This document shows, piece after piece, positions 1 to 12,039 of a DNA stretch of 64,000 bases (position 1 is its first letter; the number at the start of each line of letters is the position of its first letter). The stretch lies in the NCBI GenBank assembly GCA_000002435.2, contig CM018791.1; one strand, 5' to 3'. Made by a program: the position numbers and the translations under genes. The DNA is from Giardia intestinalis (Eukaryota). The notes under the pieces are model-generated. The model had not been told where the DNA came from. It saw only the letters and a program-made list of their open reading frames with translations, and made no database searches.

Positions 1-885
1 AGAGATTTCTATAAGGTTGTCTTGTACAATCCACACTCAAAGAATGAGATAGTATCAGCTTCACTTTATATCATATCCGTAGGTGTATCTGGCACCTAAG
101 GGCTTTGAAAGACTCTTTGATTGTCAAAAATAATCATCTGACAATCACTTGACTATTGGAGCATGTAATTAGTGTAAATAGTGTATATTTCATTTTCATG
201 ATTTGAAAGGTATTTAGAATACGTTTTAAAGCAGCAACTCTTTTAAATTAGAAAGATATTTTGCTGATTTTGGTTTGACGTATATCACGACAGTCACTCT
301 GCTGTGCGCACTGTGAATTGCAAACCCCACAGCCTCGAAGCGTTCTGGAGACCAAAGCAGAATTACTCTCGCATTGGTAATAGGGGACCTTGGAGTCCCT
401 ATAGTAGTAAGCTTTCCTTTCAGAAGCCATCCCTTATGTTAATTAACTGTAATCAGCTACACTATGCATGTTTCAATACTCAACTGAGTCTTCATGTATG
501 ATCAGGTCAATCTCTGCAGTTAGATAGGCATTTAATAGCACCTGGTGTACTCTCAAGCTTTACACAATCTAATAGTTAATACCACAACATTTGTCAAGCC
601 TGTGAAAACATTGAAGAACCCACTTTTCATAGACGCTTTTCTACAACCGTTAATGATTTGATCAATACTCACTATAACGTCCCTCTACTACTGTACACCT
701 GCTGTAATATAAATTTAGTATGACAAAAGCTACCGATGAATGTTGTATATGAGTAGACATCCTCACTCCTTCACCACATCTTTTTTATTGGCAGAGGCTC
801 GGTCCTTAAGTGAGAGTACTAGTCTATTTCATCCTTGTTATAGAGAAAGTGTAAGCATTATTGCAAACCCAGAGATTGTAATTGA

Positions 886-3800
886 CAGGCATATACTACC
901 TCCATGTCTGCACTCTGGATGCAACAACCACAGCGCAGCTGCATCTCCGATCATTCTGTGCACGCCTTCTGGCACGGGCAGGTGCGCCGGAGGGGGTGTA
1001 CTGCCCACCGCCGAGAAATGGATGAGCTCCTGGTCGGCCCGCCCCGCCTGGAACTTAGAGACCGCCATTCACGGCCGTGAAGAGAGTTCTCGCAAGTAAA
1101 TCTCTCGGGTTGATTCACACGGCGGGTAACCATCCGGTAGAATTCCGTATTGAATTAACTCGCTTAATTAAAAAGTTAGTATCCACGACAATATGGTGAG
1201 GCCCTGCCTGACCGTGGAAAATCAGTCAAAGGTGCTGCGCTGGCTTGCCACAGAGATCATAAACGCAATCCATCCAGAGGAGACGGTGGAGGACCTTCTT
1301 GCAAACCCGTGTCTGCTCCACTCGTACATGCTCAAAACATCCGTGGACTGGCATTGGATCTCTAACGAGGTTGGCGTGGACGAGAAGAAGGTTTCTCGTT
1401 GGTACTATGAAACGCACCTGCGCCACATCCTAACTATAAAGATGACTAACGAAGACCGTGGAGAGATTCGCAAGATTATCATCAATTGGATCCGCTGCCA
1501 GCAAGTTCCAGACGAGCGGCTTTACCAAGCAATTCATGAGAAGTTTGGAAAGAAGTACTCGCGTCAAGAGCTACGGATGACGTACTACAATATGCTTAAC
1601 AGTCGTTGCATACGGGCCGTCCTTACTGAGTGCAATATTCAGCGTCCGACAAGGCGGAGAAGGCCTCCTGAAACAGAGCGTGCAGGGCTATCTTCCTCGA
1701 CCGTCCTTCACATACCCGGGTATGCTTCCGGTCCTCAACCAGCCCCCTTAGACCATAGAAAGTTGTCCCAGTCAAGTACTCACAAGTATTCTCCAGAAGC
1801 AGCCTCTTTCTCTCAGATTGACGTCAAGGCAGAAAGTGGACTGAATAACGATATTCCAGATGAACCCGTTACCTTTAGTCCTCTTGCATTCCAGAGCATT
1901 GCCCAACAGCAACCGTACATTAAGCTACTCAATCTACAGTCAGTCCCGCTCTCCCTCGATATTAACGGCCAATTAGCATGCATCCCCCTAATCATAGTTG
2001 AGCCAGGAGCCAACATCTGGTCCATTACTCCCAATGAGGAGCCAGTGGGAGGCGCTGGACAGTAGCGTTCTTTGGTATTGCTCTTCTAACTCATGATAAA
2101 GGATTTGCCGCCTTTTATCTTGCAGAAGACTAGACTTATCTGTACCCCACACTTGATTGCAGATGCAGCAGGACCATGTGCAGGCCATGAAGGTCACGCA
2201 TTGACAAAGCAAACTGGAATTATTCACAGAGGTGGTTTTTGGCAAACTTGTAATCTAGTGGCACGTCATCTTTGGGCTAAGTTGCCTAACTTCTAATCGT
2301 ATATCTACGGCTTCCCTATTTACGCGGTTCTTTGCAGGAGCTAGACCTACTGAAGCATACTTAGCACATAATTCCGCAGATGAGGATACGCGATAATATT
2401 ATCAGCATCCCAATCTCATTCTTGTCAATAACGAATGTATCGATCCACAGATGCTAGTTTCTATCAGCCGAATTAGACTCGCTTAGCAGCCCGTAGAGAT
2501 GATGTAGCTCACCACCGAAGTACTTCCACATCTGCTTTTTTCCGTTTTAGACATAAAGTTGGAACTCATTATTTACCCCGTCAATGATTTTCTGCGTTCA
2601 CTGATGGGTGTATATTATTCTATATTGTCAGTTATCTAGGGACCTCTTTCATAGGAGCGCCACATCAACCCCCTTTATGTTCCTCTTACATTTTATTATG
2701 TGCTTTACATCTTCTTGTCTATCAATATTCACACCCCCATGGATATGCCAGATACATATCTGTATCATATGCTACTGTGATCATAGGTTTGTTGTAAATA
2801 AGGGTGTGATCGGTACCACCACAGAACTCGTTAAACCCTGTCTGCCTTGAGAGTACGCTAATGGGACTACATGCTCAATCTGAGCAGATGTCTGTGGGCT
2901 TGTGTGCTAGCTGGAATAAGATAGGTGACTACTCTGTATGATCATCCTGTTATCATGATTAGGTAGCCGCGAAAGATTAGACGTCATTGCAGGAGCAGAC
3001 AAGGCACTAGGACAGCGATTTGCTTTCCAAGGATGACGTGGATTAATAGGTTAGTAGGCAGTTCTTGGATGCAGGAGTATTAGTGGATTTGTAGACTCGC
3101 GTAGTTATGCATACAGGTCATGGTAGGGGCTCTGGTAATTCTCTGATGGTGGCCCACTTTGGCAAGAGCTCAGCTGGGAAAGGCAAGGCGCTGGACGAGG
3201 ACGCGGAGAAAGTTCGGCACCCCGTGTTCCCACGACGTCTCCGATCGCAGTACTGGCGGGGCCTGACGGCGCTTCTCTTCTTAATTCGGAACGAGTTAAG
3301 GAGTTTCCGCCGTAGGATGGCCGAACTGGCGGCTGAGGGAGCTGTGCGATGTGTCAGAGATTGTTAGAGATTCATACTGTATATTGTGCAATGGCTAACG
3401 TGTATGGGTGTCCCACCGAAGACCCGGTGAAGGATGGCACCGGAGATGAGACAGGATGACCCCTGGTGGAGGAGACCACGGTGCGGGCTTGCCTGCAGAT
3501 GCCGTGGCTAAAATCTCAGCCCGTCCAGGAATCTAACAGAGATTATGCAGCCGGACACTGGGACCTACCGGAGAGCCGCATCGCCCCTGCACGAGCCAGC
3601 AAGCACTGCCTTCGACCCGACCACAGTTGGGAACGCTCATGTCCGTGGATGCCGTCGGTCAGGTCCCTGAAGACCACCCTGCTCACAGCCCCAGGGATCC
3701 CTCTGCAGACTCTGATTTCTATATCCCTGGGGTAGATGTTTGCGGATAGCGGCACAGGGCTCAGCAGAACCGCCAGAAGATCCGCAGCACACTGTCATTA

Positions 3801-4727
3801 ACTATAAACGTCTTGCGGTATTCATTCCATGGCTAAGCCACCAATAATGGCACTGGAACTGGAGTAAGACACTTCTAGGGTGCGACTACAGGACCGTGGA
3901 GGAGCTTCCTTCCCACGAAGGAGACCCTGCAGCTAGGGCGTGGTCCATCAACGCTTAGAACTGCACACCTTGGTAGAAGCAGAGCCAAGCCCACACTTAG
4001 AAATCGATGGCTGCCCTCTTGGACCCCGCACATGGTAATAGCTATAGAAAAGAGCTTGGGCAAGGAGATCACGCGGACCAGGTGTACCCGGACTGAGAAG
4101 CGTCTACTTCATCAAGTAACGGTAACCGGTCTATGCACACAGACCATGTTTGGCGGCAAGCTCCCCTGTAGCTCATGTATACACTGCGAACCGCTGCCTA
4201 GAGGCTTGCGTTGGAGATGCTGCAAGACACTAATGGTTGAAAGGTGTGACTAGCCGTTCTTCTAGATATCGTCTCTTTGGATGCGCCGGGTACCTAAGGC
4301 GATAGTCCAGCGCTGCACGCCTTGACTGCCACGGGCCTTGTGCATAGCCGACCAGGTGCCCGACACACGCCGCTTGGGAGTGCCCAGACCACACGGTGCC
4401 GTAATCGGGCTGCTAAGGTGCGAGAGATGGTGCACAGAGGCGCATATCAGAGCCAAGAGTCTGTGTGTCGCCTGCCTCTGGGTGGAATAGTTGTACAATA
4501 GTAGGGGGTGCTCATTGCCATACAGAAGCGGGCACGGCAAAACATGGAGGCGCGGTCCTACCGCAGGATTCGACGGATGCTCGGAGACAGGTGGTCCAAC
4601 GGTTTTATGGAATGACGGCGCAACGGCCATGGAGTGGGCAGGTGCAATAGGCGATGCGTTTACTACCTAAGTACACAGCTAAGTCTACGCCTTCCCCCTG
4701 CACAGGAACCACCAGCAGAGGAAGCCG
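886..4727. repeat. Left arm of a large inverted repeat, about 3.84 kb. It is the reverse complement of about 7763..11603. The inner end carries a VSP 3'-end remnant, and the arm contains one copy of a 290-aa Myb-like gene.
   Basis: Every six-frame ORF in 951..4650 reappears with identical translation on the opposite strand in 7839..11538, for example 1193..2065(+) = 10424..11296(-) and 4262..4630(-) = 7859..8227(+). Coordinate sums are constant at about 12489. The outer boundary was read at 886/11603, where the sequences diverge abruptly. One a/g mismatch was seen at 3925 versus 8564, giving V/I in the 65-aa ORFs. Confidence 0.85.
1193..2065 (+). CDS. Hypothetical protein with two tandem Myb/SANT-like repeats in the N-terminal 150 aa and a low-complexity C-terminal tail. 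This is the left-arm copy.
   Basis: A 290-aa ORF with an ATG start. The motifs ...DWHWISNEVGVDEKKVSRWYYETHL... and ...FGKKYSRQELRMTYYNMLN... resemble Myb repeats (W-x18-W and GKxxxQCRERWHNHLN-like with W replaced by Y). It is identical to 10424..11296(-) and about 40% identical over about 145 aa to the 12040..12849(-) paralog. Confidence 0.6.
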   Translation: MVRPCLTVENQSKVLRWLATEIINAIHPEETVEDLLANPCLLHSYMLKTSVDWHWISNEVGVDEKKVSRWYYETHLRHILTIKMTNEDRGEIRKIIINWIRCQQVPDERLYQAIHEKFGKKYSRQELRMTYYNMLNSRCIRAVLTECNIQRPTRRRRPPETERAGLSSSTVLHIPGYASGPQPAPLDHRKLSQSSTHKYSPEAASFSQIDVKAESGLNNDIPDEPVTFSPLAFQSIAQQQPYIKLLNLQSVPLSLDINGQLACIPLIIVEPGANIWSITPNEEPVGGAGQ

Positions 4728-4756
4728 ACGAGCACAGTGACAGCAATGTACAGGAA
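4685..4756 (-). pseudogene. VSP C-terminal remnant: a transmembrane-like segment plus the CRGKA tail and stop. It is oriented away from the intact VSP gene.
   Basis: The minus-strand ORF 4685..4906 ends ...FLYIAVTVLVGFLCWWFLCRGKA-stop. Only the last 23 codons or so are VSP-like, and the upstream part of the ORF has no VSP features such as CxxC. The last 14 codons, the stop and the AGTAAAC signal (reverse-complemented at 4658..4664) are identical to the intact VSP. The preceding LVG codons differ only at synonymous positions (ctc gtc ggc versus ctt gtg ggc). Confidence 0.7.
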
Positions 4757-4987
4757 TGCATCCCGAACAATCATTCCACAAGAGAGGTGCGGTCTGAGTC
4801 TAGCCTCAACTGGTCCTATTTCTATGGAAGTCAGGAGGAACTGCACTGTCAGCTGGCCTCCGGTGGGCGTACTCCTATCTCGTCCTTCTCCAGTCCAACT
4901 GATCAAGGAGAGTAAGAGCGGCTGTCTCTTACTGCTCGCGGTAACACATCAGCCTGACGGAAGAGCAGTGGCATACGAACCCGGCTA

Positions 4988-7804
4988 ATGTTGGTAGGAT
5001 TTCTCTTAGTTTTTGTGGTAACACAGGCCAACTGCGCACAAGAGCTGACCCAGGCAGGCTGCAAGACGTGTGTCGGGGCAGACGCCGCCCAGACGTGTAC
5101 GGAGTGCACAACTTCTGGACACAAGGTACAGCTCGATAAAAGAAGCTGCGGCCCCACCTGCCCGGCGCACTCCACGGCCAGCTCGAACGTCTGCGAGTGC
5201 GACCAGGGATACACGCCCAACGCCGGGAAGACCGCGTGCGAGCCCAATCCCAGCGCGGGATGCGCACAAGAGCTGACCCAGGCAGGCTGCAAGACGTGTG
5301 TCGGGGCAGACGCCGCCCAGACGTGTACGGAGTGCACAACTTCTGGACACAAGGTACAGCTCGATAAAAGAAGCTGCGGCCCCACCTGCCCGGCGCACTC
5401 CACGGCCAGCTCGAACGTCTGCGAGTGCGACCAGGGATACACGCCCAACGCCGGGAAGACCGCGTGCGAGCCCAATCCCAGCGCGGGATGCGCACAAGAG
5501 CTGACCCAGGCAGGCTGCAAGACGTGTGTCGGGGCAGACGCCGCCCAGACGTGTACGGAGTGCACAACTTCTGGACACAAGGTACAGCTCGATAAAAGAA
5601 GCTGCGGCCCCACCTGCCCGGCGCACTCCACGGCCAGCTCGAACGTCTGCGAGTGCGACCAGGGATACACGCCCAACGCCGGGAAGACCGCGTGCGAGCC
5701 CAATCCCAGCGCGGGATGCGCACAAGAGCTGACCCAGGCAGGCTGCAAGACGTGTGTCGGGGCAGACGCCGCCCAGACGTGTACGGAGTGCACAACTTCT
5801 GGACACAAGGTACAGCTCGATAAAAGAAGCTGCGGCCCCACCTGCCCGGCGCACTCCACGGCCAGCTCGAACGTCTGCGAGTGCGACCAGGGATACACGC
5901 CCAACGCCGGGAAGACCGCGTGCGAGCCCAATCCCAGCGCGGGATGCGCACAAGAGCTGACCCAGGCAGGCTGCAAGACGTGTGTCGGGGCAGACGCCGC
6001 CCAGACGTGTACGGAGTGCACAACTTCTGGACACAAGGTACAGCTCGATAAAAGAAGCTGCGGCCCCACCTGCCCGGCGCACTCCACGGCCAGCTCGAAC
6101 GTCTGCGAGTGCGACCAGGGATACACGCCCAACGCCGGGAAGACCGCGTGCGAGCCCAATCCCAGCGCGGGATGCGCACAAGAGCTGACCCAGGCAGGCT
6201 GCAAGACGTGTGTCGGGGCAGACGCCGCCCAGACGTGTACGGAGTGCACAACTTCTGGACACAAGGTACAGCTCGATAAAAGAAGCTGCGGCCCCACCTG
6301 CCCGGCGCACTCCACGGCCAGCTCGAACGTCTGCGAGTGCGACCAGGGATACACGCCCAACGCCGGGAAGACCGCGTGCGAGCCCAATCCCAGCGCGGGA
6401 TGCGCACAAGAGCTGACCCAGGCAGGCTGCAAGACGTGTGTCGGGGCAGACGCCGCCCAGACGTGTACGGAGTGCACAACTTCTGGACACAAGGTACAGC
6501 TCGATAAAAGAAGCTGCGGCCCCACCTGCCCGGCGCACTCCACGGCCAGCTCGAACGTCTGCGAGTGCGACCAGGGATACACGCCCAACGCCGGGAAGAC
6601 CGCGTGCGAGCCCAATCCCAGCGCGGGATGCGCACAAGAGCTGACCCAGGCAGGCTGCAAGACGTGTGTCGGGGCAGACGCCGCCCAGACGTGTACGGAG
6701 TGCACAACTTCTGGACACAAGGTACAGCTCGATAAAAGAAGCTGCGGCCCCACCTGCCCGGCGCACTCCACGGCCAGCTCGAACGTCTGCGAGTGCGACC
6801 AGGGATACACGCCCAACGCCGGGAAGACCGCGTGCGAGGTGGCCTCTAACACGCAGTGTAATACTCCCAACTGCAAGATCTGTGATAACCCCAAAACAGA
6901 CAATGAAATCTGCACTGAATGTAATGACGGCGACTACCTCACTCCAACAAAGCAGTGTACGCAAAGCTGCGGAGCAATAGGAAGCTACTACAACGGAGAC
7001 AAAGTGTGCGAGCCCTGTAATCCTAGCTGTGCTGCGTGCACCACAAAGGGACCAGCGAAGTGCACGCTGTGTCCTCCCGGGAAGAGGCTCCAGTACACAG
7101 ATGAGAACAGTCCATCAAGCGGTACTTGCGTAGATGAGTGCAAGCCCCAGAGTGGAGCTAGCGGATGCGAGACCTGCGGAGCCACCATCGGAGGGACAAA
7201 GTATTGCTCGAAGTGCAGCACATCCACGGAGGTCCCCGTCAACGGAGTCTGTACAGCAGACAATGCCCGCGCGCCCGTATGCTCGAAAAAGGACAATCAG
7301 GGAGGGTGCACTACGTGTGCCAGTGGGTACTTCCGCCAGGACAACGGCTGCTATAAGACTGACAGACAGCCAGGCAAACAGATATGTACACTAGCTGATA
7401 GCAATGGTGGATGTCAGGCGTGTGCCAATGGTCTTCCTCCTAGTTCTTCTGACGTATGCCCCTCGTGTCATTTCACCTGCAAGACATGCTCGACCGCAGA
7501 CACTGCAAATACTTGTACAACGTGTGCAACTGGGTACTATATGGTCGGATCAGCAGCTGGACCATGCACTTCGTGTGACAGCAACAGTGGAAGTGTCAAG
7601 GGAGTTGCTGGCTGCATGAGCTGCGCTCCTCCATCTAATAATCAAGGCTCCGTCCTTTGCTACCTCATAAAGGATACCGGTAGCACCAACAGGAGCGGCC
7701 TCTCCACGGGGGCCATCGTGGGGATCTTCGTCGCAGTCATCGTTGTTGTGGGGGGCCTTGTGGGCTTCCTCTGCTGGTGGTTCCTGTGCAGGGGGAAGGC
7801 GTAG
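4988..7804 (+). CDS. vsp: Variant-specific surface protein (VSP), 938 aa. It has an N-terminal signal peptide, eight identical 76-aa Cys-rich repeats, a CxxC-rich body, a transmembrane helix and the invariant CRGKA cytoplasmic tail.
   Basis: ATG at 4988. The N-terminus MLVGFLLVFVVTQANC is hydrophobic. The protein is about 12% Cys with many CxxC motifs. The C-terminus ...GAIVGIFVAVIVVVGGLVGFLCWWFLCRGKA is the hallmark of the Giardia VSP family. AGTAAAC follows 21 nt after the TAG stop. Confidence 0.95.
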   Translation: MLVGFLLVFVVTQANCAQELTQAGCKTCVGADAAQTCTECTTSGHKVQLDKRSCGPTCPAHSTASSNVCECDQGYTPNAGKTACEPNPSAGCAQELTQAGCKTCVGADAAQTCTECTTSGHKVQLDKRSCGPTCPAHSTASSNVCECDQGYTPNAGKTACEPNPSAGCAQELTQAGCKTCVGADAAQTCTECTTSGHKVQLDKRSCGPTCPAHSTASSNVCECDQGYTPNAGKTACEPNPSAGCAQELTQAGCKTCVGADAAQTCTECTTSGHKVQLDKRSCGPTCPAHSTASSNVCECDQGYTPNAGKTACEPNPSAGCAQELTQAGCKTCVGADAAQTCTECTTSGHKVQLDKRSCGPTCPAHSTASSNVCECDQGYTPNAGKTACEPNPSAGCAQELTQAGCKTCVGADAAQTCTECTTSGHKVQLDKRSCGPTCPAHSTASSNVCECDQGYTPNAGKTACEPNPSAGCAQELTQAGCKTCVGADAAQTCTECTTSGHKVQLDKRSCGPTCPAHSTASSNVCECDQGYTPNAGKTACEPNPSAGCAQELTQAGCKTCVGADAAQTCTECTTSGHKVQLDKRSCGPTCPAHSTASSNVCECDQGYTPNAGKTACEVASNTQCNTPNCKICDNPKTDNEICTECNDGDYLTPTKQCTQSCGAIGSYYNGDKVCEPCNPSCAACTTKGPAKCTLCPPGKRLQYTDENSPSSGTCVDECKPQSGASGCETCGATIGGTKYCSKCSTSTEVPVNGVCTADNARAPVCSKKDNQGGCTTCASGYFRQDNGCYKTDRQPGKQICTLADSNGGCQACANGLPPSSSDVCPSCHFTCKTCSTADTANTCTTCATGYYMVGSAAGPCTSCDSNSGSVKGVAGCMSCAPPSNNQGSVLCYLIKDTGSTNRSGLSTGAIVGIFVAVIVVVGGLVGFLCWWFLCRGKA
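5033..6838 (+). repeat. In-frame tandem array of 7.9 copies of a 228-bp unit inside the VSP gene. All full copies are identical at the nucleotide level.
   Basis: Alternate-frame ORFs recur at exactly 228-bp spacing (5070, 5298 ... 6666). The sequence lines at 5041-5100 and 6181-6240 (5 x 228 bp apart) are letter-for-letter identical. The unit encodes AGCAQELTQAGCKTCVGADAAQTCTECTTSGHKVQLDKRSCGPTCPAHSTASSNVCECDQGYTPNAGKTACEPNPS, with 10 Cys. The last copy diverges at ...KTACEVASNTQ. Confidence 0.95.
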
Positions 7805-7824
7805 ACTTAGCTGTGTACTTAGGT

Positions 7825-7831
7825 AGTAAAC
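7825..7831 (+). promoter_or_regulatory. Giardia polyadenylation signal AGTAAAC (consensus AGTPuAAPy) downstream of the VSP stop.
   Basis: agtaaac lies 21 nt 3' of the TAG at 7802..7804. A mirrored copy (gtttact) sits at 4658..4664 downstream of the remnant on the minus strand. Confidence 0.7.
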
Positions 7832-10423
7832 GCATCGCCTATTGCACCTGCCCACTCCATGGCCGTTGCGCCGTCATTCCATAAAACCGTTGGACCACCT
7901 GTCTCCGAGCATCCGTCGAATCCTGCGGTAGGACCGCGCCTCCATGTTTTGCCGTGCCCGCTTCTGTATGGCAATGAGCACCCCCTACTATTGTACAACT
8001 ATTCCACCCAGAGGCAGGCGACACACAGACTCTTGGCTCTGATATGCGCCTCTGTGCACCATCTCTCGCACCTTAGCAGCCCGATTACGGCACCGTGTGG
8101 TCTGGGCACTCCCAAGCGGCGTGTGTCGGGCACCTGGTCGGCTATGCACAAGGCCCGTGGCAGTCAAGGCGTGCAGCGCTGGACTATCGCCTTAGGTACC
8201 CGGCGCATCCAAAGAGACGATATCTAGAAGAACGGCTAGTCACACCTTTCAACCATTAGTGTCTTGCAGCATCTCCAACGCAAGCCTCTAGGCAGCGGTT
8301 CGCAGTGTATACATGAGCTACAGGGGAGCTTGCCGCCAAACATGGTCTGTGTGCATAGACCGGTTACCGTTACTTGATGAAGTAGACGCTTCTCAGTCCG
8401 GGTACACCTGGTCCGCGTGATCTCCTTGCCCAAGCTCTTTTCTATAGCTATTACCATGTGCGGGGTCCAAGAGGGCAGCCATCGATTTCTAAGTGTGGGC
8501 TTGGCTCTGCTTCTACCAAGGTGTGCAGTTCTAAGCGTTGATGGACCACGCCCTAGCTGCAGGATCTCCTTCGTGGGAAGGAAGCTCCTCCACGGTCCTG
8601 TAGTCGCACCCTAGAAGTGTCTTACTCCAGTTCCAGTGCCATTATTGGTGGCTTAGCCATGGAATGAATACCGCAAGACGTTTATAGTTAATGACAGTGT
8701 GCTGCGGATCTTCTGGCGGTTCTGCTGAGCCCTGTGCCGCTATCCGCAAACATCTACCCCAGGGATATAGAAATCAGAGTCTGCAGAGGGATCCCTGGGG
8801 CTGTGAGCAGGGTGGTCTTCAGGGACCTGACCGACGGCATCCACGGACATGAGCGTTCCCAACTGTGGTCGGGTCGAAGGCAGTGCTTGCTGGCTCGTGC
8901 AGGGGCGATGCGGCTCTCCGGTAGGTCCCAGTGTCCGGCTGCATAATCTCTGTTAGATTCCTGGACGGGCTGAGATTTTAGCCACGGCATCTGCAGGCAA
9001 GCCCGCACCGTGGTCTCCTCCACCAGGGGTCATCCTGTCTCATCTCCGGTGCCATCCTTCACCGGGTCTTCGGTGGGACACCCATACACGTTAGCCATTG
9101 CACAATATACAGTATGAATCTCTAACAATCTCTGACACATCGCACAGCTCCCTCAGCCGCCAGTTCGGCCATCCTACGGCGGAAACTCCTTAACTCGTTC
9201 CGAATTAAGAAGAGAAGCGCCGTCAGGCCCCGCCAGTACTGCGATCGGAGACGTCGTGGGAACACGGGGTGCCGAACTTTCTCCGCGTCCTCGTCCAGCG
9301 CCTTGCCTTTCCCAGCTGAGCTCTTGCCAAAGTGGGCCACCATCAGAGAATTACCAGAGCCCCTACCATGACCTGTATGCATAACTACGCGAGTCTACAA
9401 ATCCACTAATACTCCTGCATCCAAGAACTGCCTACTAACCTATTAATCCACGTCATCCTTGGAAAGCAAATCGCTGTCCTAGTGCCTTGTCTGCTCCTGC
9501 AATGACGTCTAATCTTTCGCGGCTACCTAATCATGATAACAGGATGATCATACAGAGTAGTCACCTATCTTATTCCAGCTAGCACACAAGCCCACAGACA
9601 TCTGCTCAGATTGAGCATGTAGTCCCATTAGCGTACTCTCAAGGCAGACAGGGTTTAACGAGTTCTGTGGTGGTACCGATCACACCCTTATTTACAACAA
9701 ACCTATGATCACAGTAGCATATGATACAGATATGTATCTGGCATATCCATGGGGGTGTGAATATTGATAGACAAGAAGATGTAAAGCACATAATAAAATG
9801 TAAGAGGAACATAAAGGGGGTTGATGTGGCGCTCCTATGAAAGAGGTCCCTAGATAACTGACAATATAGAATAATATACACCCATCAGTGAACGCAGAAA
9901 ATCATTGACGGGGTAAATAATGAGTTCCAACTTTATGTCTAAAACGGAAAAAAGCAGATGTGGAAGTACTTCGGTGGTGAGCTACATCATCTCTACGGGC
10001 TGCTAAGCGAGTCTAATTCGGCTGATAGAAACTAGCATCTGTGGATCGATACATTCGTTATTGACAAGAATGAGATTGGGATGCTGATAATATTATCGCG
10101 TATCCTCATCTGCGGAATTATGTGCTAAGTATGCTTCAGTAGGTCTAGCTCCTGCAAAGAACCGCGTAAATAGGGAAGCCGTAGATATACGATTAGAAGT
10201 TAGGCAACTTAGCCCAAAGATGACGTGCCACTAGATTACAAGTTTGCCAAAAACCACCTCTGTGAATAATTCCAGTTTGCTTTGTCAATGCGTGACCTTC
10301 ATGGCCTGCACATGGTCCTGCTGCATCTGCAATCAAGTGTGGGGTACAGATAAGTCTAGTCTTCTGCAAGATAAAAGGCGGCAAATCCTTTATCATGAGT
10401 TAGAAGAGCAATACCAAAGAACG

Positions 10424-11296
10424 CTACTGTCCAGCGCCTCCCACTGGCTCCTCATTGGGAGTAATGGACCAGATGTTGGCTCCTGGCTCAACTATGATTA
10501 GGGGGATGCATGCTAATTGGCCGTTAATATCGAGGGAGAGCGGGACTGACTGTAGATTGAGTAGCTTAATGTACGGTTGCTGTTGGGCAATGCTCTGGAA
10601 TGCAAGAGGACTAAAGGTAACGGGTTCATCTGGAATATCGTTATTCAGTCCACTTTCTGCCTTGACGTCAATCTGAGAGAAAGAGGCTGCTTCTGGAGAA
10701 TACTTGTGAGTACTTGACTGGGACAACTTTCTATGGTCTAAGGGGGCTGGTTGAGGACCGGAAGCATACCCGGGTATGTGAAGGACGGTCGAGGAAGATA
10801 GCCCTGCACGCTCTGTTTCAGGAGGCCTTCTCCGCCTTGTCGGACGCTGAATATTGCACTCAGTAAGGACGGCCCGTATGCAACGACTGTTAAGCATATT
10901 GTAGTACGTCATCCGTAGCTCTTGACGCGAGTACTTCTTTCCAAACTTCTCATGAATTGCTTGGTAAAGCCGCTCGTCTGGAACTTGCTGGCAGCGGATC
11001 CAATTGATGATAATCTTGCGAATCTCTCCACGGTCTTCGTTAGTCATCTTTATAGTTAGGATGTGGCGCAGGTGCGTTTCATAGTACCAACGAGAAACCT
11101 TCTTCTCGTCCACGCCAACCTCGTTAGAGATCCAATGCCAGTCCACGGATGTTTTGAGCATGTACGAGTGGAGCAGACACGGGTTTGCAAGAAGGTCCTC
11201 CACCGTCTCCTCTGGATGGATTGCGTTTATGATCTCTGTGGCAAGCCAGCGCAGCACCTTTGACTGATTTTCCACGGTCAGGCAGGGCCTCACCAT
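10424..11296 (-). CDS. Right-arm copy of the 290-aa Myb/SANT-like protein, identical to 1193..2065.
   Basis: Identical 290-aa translation in the ORF track. It lies within the inverted-repeat arm. Confidence 0.6.
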   Translation of the reverse strand: MVRPCLTVENQSKVLRWLATEIINAIHPEETVEDLLANPCLLHSYMLKTSVDWHWISNEVGVDEKKVSRWYYETHLRHILTIKMTNEDRGEIRKIIINWIRCQQVPDERLYQAIHEKFGKKYSRQELRMTYYNMLNSRCIRAVLTECNIQRPTRRRRPPETERAGLSSSTVLHIPGYASGPQPAPLDHRKLSQSSTHKYSPEAASFSQIDVKAESGLNNDIPDEPVTFSPLAFQSIAQQQPYIKLLNLQSVPLSLDINGQLACIPLIIVEPGANIWSITPNEEPVGGAGQ

Positions 11297-12039
11297 ATTG
11301 TCGTGGATACTAACTTTTTAATTAAGCGAGTTAATTCAATACGGAATTCTACCGGATGGTTACCCGCCGTGTGAATCAACCCGAGAGATTTACTTGCGAG
11401 AACTCTCTTCACGGCCGTGAATGGCGGTCTCTAAGTTCCAGGCGGGGCGGGCCGACCAGGAGCTCATCCATTTCTCGGCGGTGGGCAGTACACCCCCTCC
11501 GGCGCACCTGCCCGTGCCAGAAGGCGTGCACAGAATGATCGGAGATGCAGCTGCGCTGTGGTTGTTGCATCCAGAGTGCAGACATGGAGGTAGTATATGC
11601 CTGCCAAGACAGCACACGACTTCCCTACAGCTCCTTGGCGTGTCGGCGCGTGAAGACAGAGGGCCAGCCAGGGTGAATGTCGTGGCCGGCCAGCTGCACA
11701 TCAGCTTTAGCTCACGGCCCAGAGAGCATTCAGTCGCCTGTTACCGGACGGGCCTGTCTGGTAGATCGTTGGCCCAGACCGCGGTGTTCGAGTCGTCTGG
11801 GCACATGGGAGAGCCCTGCCTTCGTCTGCTGTGTGTGGTCTCTTCAACGATGCGCAGAATGTGGGTTGCGCGACATCCAGACCGTCGCAGCCTGCGTCTG
11901 GTGGGCCCTGCGCTGTGCCGTGGTTGAGCATGCTACACGCTCTAGACATGACGGTCTCGTCACTGACCAGGCTCCGGCCATTAGCTGCTCCTACCGACCA
12001 CTCTTCGCCAACCACCAAGCAAGCCGGGGTCTCCAGTCC

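Follow-up and report, generated by a model that had tools for sequence, protein, structure and literature searches.

Among Giardia's variant-specific surface proteins (VSPs), a tandem-repeat subclass has been described in which in-frame, near-identical units of 105-516 bp follow a leader of 66-99 bp (PMC2996952). Such repeats were found in 30 of the 228 complete vsp genes of the isolate WB (PMC2996952), and a 2022 preprint (bioRxiv 10.1101/2022.03.07.483299) reports them in 36 of 136 genes; the statement of a first-pass annotation of this DNA, made by a model from the letters alone, that repeat-bearing VSPs are known in Giardia is therefore correct. The repeat of vspA6 is immunodominant, and the copy numbers of both vspA6 and vspC5 vary among alleles (PMC2996952). 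Here we report on a VSP gene with a perfect 228-bp tandem array, found at positions 4988 to 7804 of a 64,000-nucleotide stretch of Giardia intestinalis DNA (contig CM018791.1 of assembly GCA_000002435.2); this whole stretch is referred to as the window. We consider it very probable that the array is the internal repeat of a normal and intact VSP, and that its copies are identical through recent expansion together with ongoing homogenisation. The gene has the layout of the aforementioned subclass, with a 228-bp unit, 7.92 perfect copies and an array starting 45 bp after the ATG, although this leader is slightly shorter than those of the three examples figured in PMC2996952. The parts of the gene are as follows.

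4986..4992, plus strand: TAATGTT initiator (Inr) motif across the ATG, read from the sequence; the motif class is tabulated in PMC2996952 and the preprint entry is 'taatgtt'.
4988..7804, plus strand: complete VSP gene, 938 aa and stop, GL50803_0050289 / XP_001704497.2, based on the open reading frame (ORF), Pfam and agreement with the preprint table.
4988..5032, plus strand: putative signal peptide MLVGFLLVFVVTQAN, 15 aa, hydrophobic, from the translation.
5033..6838, plus strand: perfect 228-bp tandem array, 7.92 copies, eight 76-aa modules of 10 Cys, based on Tandem Repeats Finder and a base check; the preprint consensus is identical.
6839..7708, plus strand: non-repeated Cys-rich ectodomain, about 90% identical to the AS7-like WB paralogue P0001 (BLASTP).
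7709..7804, plus strand: transmembrane segment (about aa 908-933), cytoplasmic CRGKA and stop, from the translation; VSP C-terminus as given in PMC2996952 and PMC7000408.
7816..7835, plus strand: TACTTAGGTAGTAAACGCAT, the conserved VSP 3' motif with the AGTAAA polyadenylation signal, from the sequence; the preprint lists the motif at +15..34.

Tandem Repeats Finder reported one array in the 64-kb window and no second one: 5033..6838, with a period of 228, 7.9 copies, 100% matches, no indels and a score of 3612. A base-by-base check gave the same result, because a shift of 228 nt downstream reproduces each base between 5033 and 6610 with no exception, making a periodic span of 1806 bp; exact periodicity over 1.8 kb cannot be a matter of chance. 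Copies 1-7 (5033-6628) are identical at 228 of 228 positions, and copy 8 agrees with them over its first 210 nt but has 13 mismatches in the remaining 18, so that the count at the DNA level is seven full copies and 210 bp of one more, i.e., 7.92 copies. The claim of eight letter-perfect copies in the first-pass annotation thus stands as to perfection, which extends over the seven full copies, and has to be corrected as to the count, since the last 18 nt diverge. At the protein level there are nevertheless eight modules, and the eighth retains all 10 Cys. The same annotation had pointed out that sequence lines 1140 bp apart are verbatim repeats, and this is trivially so, because 1140 is both 5 x 228 and 19 x 60.

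The repeat unit translates into CAQELTQAGCKTCVGADAAQTCTECTTSGHKVQLDKRSCGPTCPAHSTASSNVCECDQGYTPNAGKTACEPNPSAG, which has the 76 aa, the 10 Cys and, in CKTC and CTEC, the two CxxC motifs that had been read for it initially. The array is in frame with the 938-aa ORF and begins at codon 16; the signal peptide lies just before it, and the C-terminus holds the transmembrane segment and CRGKA, in accord with the N-terminal, membrane-distal position that had been assigned to it. Three antisense ORFs of 592-670 aa (4903-6964, minus strand) that cover the array were considered as genes and rejected; their length is due to the absence of stop codons from all three antisense frames of the unit.

The assignment of the gene to the Giardia VSPs, already made from the letters, is confirmed by the Pfam family VSP (PF03302), which scores 315 bits against a gathering cutoff of 31.4 (E=8.1e-94), and by the C-terminus ...GAIVGIFVAVIVVVGGLVGFLCWWFLCRGKA, which ends with CRGKA before the stop as in the VSP class. 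The protein contains 120 Cys in 938 aa (12.8%; about 11-13% in the class), with 8 CXC, 30 CXXC and 12 CXXXC motifs, and 14 of the 30 CXXC belong to the non-repeat ectodomain. The signal peptide predicted from the sequence, the Inr at the ATG and the 3' polyadenylation motif, which starts 12 nt past the stop, are all present as well, as is characteristic of the class.

The gene could be identified with an annotated one. Nine of the ten neighbouring ORFs are exact matches to proteins of Giardia intestinalis WB C6 (KAE8302796-KAE8302820, chromosome 3), and the chromosome 3 reference of WB is the 2020 PacBio assembly (PMC7000408). In the preprint supplement, GL50803_0050289 (XP_001704497.2; chromosome 3, NC_051858.1) has a length of 2817 nt and 938 aa, the Inr taatgtt, 120 Cys, 8 CXC, 30 CXXC and 12 CXXXC, and the length, Inr and Cys-motif counts computed from the window agree with this row exactly. 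VSPs are a class whose members are expressed at the surface one at a time, with switching; for this gene the preprint table gives a low RNA-seq value, with a log counts per million (logCPM) of 3.8. Entry 20 of the tandem-repeat table in the same supplement (GL50803_50289) has a 228-nt consensus that is the same as window positions 5033-5260 letter for letter, and its row holds entries of 8, which presumably give the copy number. We found no differences between GL50803_0050289 and the window gene, an identity that beyond the reference sequence displayed in that source is based on length and motif counts. The window gene is the annotated GL50803_0050289, an ordinary repeat-bearing VSP whose repeat has already been catalogued. 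The first-pass annotation had left room for a repeat VSP that was as yet unnamed, to be given up if databases already held it, and this novelty has to be withdrawn, because the gene is annotated and its repeat is tabulated in the supplement.

The 2010 vsp catalogue (PMC2996952) has no entry with the layout of our gene, i.e., 330+76n aa. Its TR228 genes (vsp3, vsp27/CRP65 and vsp173) were examined as candidates for our gene and rejected, since none has this layout; vsp173 agrees in length and motif counts with P0004, one of the VSPs with homologous units listed below. It was probably not until the long-read assembly that the eight-copy gene was resolved.

Homologue searches revealed units of 74-83 aa with 10 Cys, homologous to ours, in a set of Giardia VSPs, including the following.

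P0001, AS7-like WB paralogue: unit of 75 aa, 11.8 copies; C-terminal region about 90% identical to ours.
P0002, WB paralogue: unit of 74 aa, 16.3 copies.
P0003, WB paralogue: unit of 74 aa, 13.1 copies.
P0006, AS7: unit of 75 aa, 5 copies.
P0008, 'cysteine-rich protein' O97448: unit of 76 aa, 4.2 copies.
P0137 (451 aa): fits vsp3 / GL50803_137740 in length and repeat number; 228-bp unit, 47% identical to ours.
P0004 and others: homologous 10-Cys units.

The aligned units have a common and invariant Cys skeleton, C-x8-C-x2-C-x6-8-C-x2-C-x12-13-C-x3-C-x10-C-x-C-x12-C. Our unit is 26-58% identical to the units of other VSPs, and the copies inside each gene are identical or nearly so; this homogeneity within genes, combined with divergence between genes, reads as the signature of concerted evolution. 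The unit belongs to a Giardia-restricted family. When 1.84 billion representative proteins were scanned exhaustively with HMMER, only 23 clusters, P0137 among them, were obtained at E<=1e-3, and the 10-Cys module is therefore narrowly distributed. A word-indexed homologue search with two units returned two fragments and missed obvious relatives, and no weight was given to it.

For the fold of the module, an AlphaFold2 model of two units, made with an input alignment of nine rows of unit pairs, has a mean predicted local distance difference test (pLDDT) score of 89.2 and shows short beta-hairpins and one short helix per unit. The best Foldseek matches in PDB were Pfs25, which has four EGF-like domains, EGF1-6 of NELL2 and the furin-like Fu1-Fu2 of RSPO (R-spondin). 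Pfam hEGF was found on the protein with a summed E of 7.9e-13, each stretch being individually non-significant; a single unit had no match in Pfam, and a sequence search of PDB gave no relatives. From the model we infer that each unit would fold as a disulfide-bonded, disulfide-rich EGF/furin-like double module made of small hairpins. Eight such modules in series would form an extended stalk of the membrane-distal ectodomain, by which the protein is lengthened and the same epitopes are shown eight times, and by analogy this multiplication of epitopes may give the repeats an antigenic role.

Relatives belonging to assemblage A2 are informative about copy number. In A2 contigs, the unit is 97% identical to that of WB at the DNA level, with four nonsynonymous and one synonymous codon changes. 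Two ENA contigs, L012 and L019, have a 37-nt partial unit and one full unit, after which the sequence leaves the array (codon 70 GTG, ...ACVAASNTQCNTPNCK). In the contig AHGT01000059.1 (L013) of the isolate DH, codon 70 is GAG and is followed by CC, which corresponds to the junction between units, and here the contig stops, so that two units are the minimum for DH. The copy number, i.e., one in L012 and L019, at least two in DH and eight in WB, appears to be isolate-dependent. This fits the copy-number polymorphism that had been predicted for the array, as does the allelic variation of vspA6 and vspC5 (PMC2996952).

The A2 genes differ from the WB gene also outside the repeat. They have the 37-nt leading partial unit and the signal-peptide end CATVLAKYSGKTACEPNPSAG before the first full unit, whereas the WB gene is without this partial unit and has the signal-peptide end FVVTQAN, resembling the DH paralogue P0009. 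The non-repeat coding parts of WB and A2 (4988-5032 and 6839-7756 compared with L012/L013) are 85-89% identical, whereas the unit, the arms of an inverted repeat that flanks the gene (described below) and the right flank show about 97% identity, and because of this disparity the comparison points to a VSP gene that is a mosaic produced by exchange among vsp genes.

On the identity of the copies, our proposal is that the 228-bp copies would have expanded recently inside the array and would be homogenised by unequal exchange between sister chromatids or homologues, by replication slippage or by gene conversion, in which case the copy number is expected to vary among alleles, clones and isolates. 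The recombination mechanism is what we infer from the identity of the copies; recombination or slippage is most likely, being the simplest reading and, by analogy, the one accepted for the repeat-VSP class and described for vspA6 and vspC5. Synonymous positions are also identical between the copies of the array, and selection at the protein level is therefore insufficient to explain the identity; this supports the view of the first-pass annotation that recent expansion or continuing homogenisation is responsible. If the identity were instead due to selection on the DNA or RNA itself, e.g., on a structural or regulatory element or an antisense gene, and not to recent duplication, the three long antisense ORFs over the array might be regarded as its trace, but these frames are merely stop-free and any array of this unit would give long ORFs. 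The sense frame, in addition, is a complete VSP with a 10-Cys skeleton common to other VSP units, and the four nonsynonymous changes against one synonymous change between the WB and A2 units suit an antigen better than a constrained nucleic acid, so that we regard such selection as hardly credible.

Another explanation is that assembly or polishing has shaped the copy number, the perfect identity or both, and that the true locus has another number of copies or slightly divergent copies made uniform by consensus polishing. Short reads cannot place perfect 228-bp copies, and exact look-ups in a collection of 15 billion proteins found no independent assembly of the full gene. The 2010 catalogue, which was based on a Sanger assembly, itself cautions that its repeat numbers may be condensed (PMC2996952); none of its arrays approaches the 11.8 copies seen in P0001, and our gene is without a match there under any layout of the above type; the risk that the first-pass annotation had seen in the assembled copy number is real in this sense, since the 11.8 copies of P0001 in 2020 have no comparable counterpart in 2010. 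On the other hand, the 2020 assembly that contains our gene preserves a difference of one residue in P0001, in its first unit, showing that its polishing does not erase all differences. PacBio reads should be long enough to cross an array of such size easily. The reference is a PacBio assembly (PMC7000408), and near-perfect arrays are the rule also in Sanger-sequenced repeat VSPs (PMC2996952). We thus consider it quite unlikely that assembly or polishing has created the copy number or the perfect identity.

Several points weigh against a normal, intact VSP with a recently expanded and homogenised eight-copy array. The copy number of eight rests on one long-read assembly, and neither the 938-aa protein nor synthetic versions of it with 1-7 units had an exact match in the 15-billion-protein collection, which means that independent confirmation is missing; however, this collection has all the neighbouring WB proteins and yet lacks XP_001704497.2, and its negative results for WB VSPs are therefore uninformative. 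The single unit in the A2 metagenome contigs could be a collapse caused by short reads. The aforementioned Foldseek matches have E values of 1.5e-4 to 1e-2, but with template-modelling (TM) scores of about 0.2 they are weak globally, as expected if the modelled units are arranged like beads on a string with flexible joints.

The VSP gene is located between the arms of a large inverted repeat.

882..4732, no strand assigned: left arm of the 3851-nt inverted repeat, with a 290-aa ORF (1193-2065, GL50803_00116967/8) and a 122-aa ORF.
7757..11607, no strand assigned: right arm of the 3851-nt inverted repeat, starting with the last 48 nt of the VSP and carrying the 290-aa ORF at 10424-11296, minus strand.

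The arms differ at four of the 3851 nt (885, 3925, 4727 and 4730; 99.9% identity), and the spacer of 3024 nt between them (4733-7756) consists of the promoter and body of the VSP. Each arm carries both the 290-aa and the 122-aa ORF, the 290-aa protein having two WB accessions (KAE8302796 and KAE8302798), and the 48 nt at the inner edge of each arm correspond to the VSP 3' end. As a result, an inverted copy of the VSP tail (LVGFLCWWFLCRGKA and stop) is present on the minus strand at 4685-4732, 256 bp upstream of the VSP ATG. A degenerate inverted VSP tail with the polyadenylation motif was found also upstream of paralogues (L011:9870-9950 and L019), and the N-terminal extension of P0137 has the adjacent upstream sequence in common; this upstream module appears to be old and ancestral to the VSP subfamily. 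The A2 contig L012 and the DH contig have the upstream module with the inverted VSP tail in common with WB and border on the same type of arm, whereas in L019 the sequence upstream of the arm boundary differs, and L019 may represent a paralogue.

In A2, the arm joined to the left flank, in L014, shows about 99% identity to the one joined to the right flank, in L013 of DH, whereas the A2 arms (L013, L014 and L016-L018) are only about 96.8% identical to the WB arms (compared over window positions 882-4676). Because the arm identity within an isolate group (99.9% in WB and about 99% in A2) exceeds that between WB and A2, the two arms evolve in concert, by gene conversion. In DH, positions 9444-14071 of L013 align to window positions 11852-7757 and then to 4733-5244; the right-flank arm thus runs into the VSP 5' end and the repeat, whereas in WB it runs into the VSP 3' end. 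Either the sub-assemblages differ by an inversion, or the assembly took an arbitrary path through the repeat.

With Nanopore sequencing, many inversions within an isolate have been predicted in WB, with enrichment for VSPs (PMC7048089); the VSP inverted-repeat locus was not found in the searched part of the structural-variant tables of that paper. Recombination between the arms might invert the whole cassette and leave the gene intact, so that the VSP spacer could be flipped, as it seems to be in DH, and act as a eukaryotic flip-flop antigen cassette; we regard this as speculative and unlikely, though not negligible. Should both orientations coexist in populations, the locus would amount to such a flip-flop cassette. 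A transcript across both arms or across the inverted VSP tail could give rise to double-stranded RNA directed at the conserved 3' end of the VSP. Silencing of the RNA interference type has been proposed for VSP switching, and such double-stranded RNA would feed into it.

Both the gene with its eight-copy repeat and the way in which repeat VSPs behave in general were known beforehand from the reference annotation and the literature, to which the present analysis adds little. The locus does provide a concrete case of a copy-number difference between sub-assemblages with a 97%-identical unit, and it could possibly serve as a simple polymerase chain reaction marker of array dynamics. It also calls for caution, because the copy number of such arrays varies with the assembly used and probably also with the allele, and this matters for antigen size, mass spectrometry, serology and read mapping. 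The possibly invertible VSP cassette is the sole lead with some potential for novelty, if long reads show both orientations.

In comparison with the described repeat VSPs of WB, our gene is like vspA6 (CRP170), vspC5 and CRP136 in having a short leader, many near-identical in-frame repeats and a conserved C-terminus. The units of these three genes are 195, 105 and 120 bp, respectively, in about 22-25 copies, and their sequences are unrelated or distantly related to ours. CRP65/vsp27 shares the unit length of 228 bp, in four copies, a likeness in the length listed in the 2010 catalogue only. The WB paralogues P0001, P0002, P0003, P0137 and P0008 have N-terminal arrays with the same Cys skeleton and units 44-58% identical to ours, each gene possessing its own homogenised unit and its own copy number from 4 to 16.

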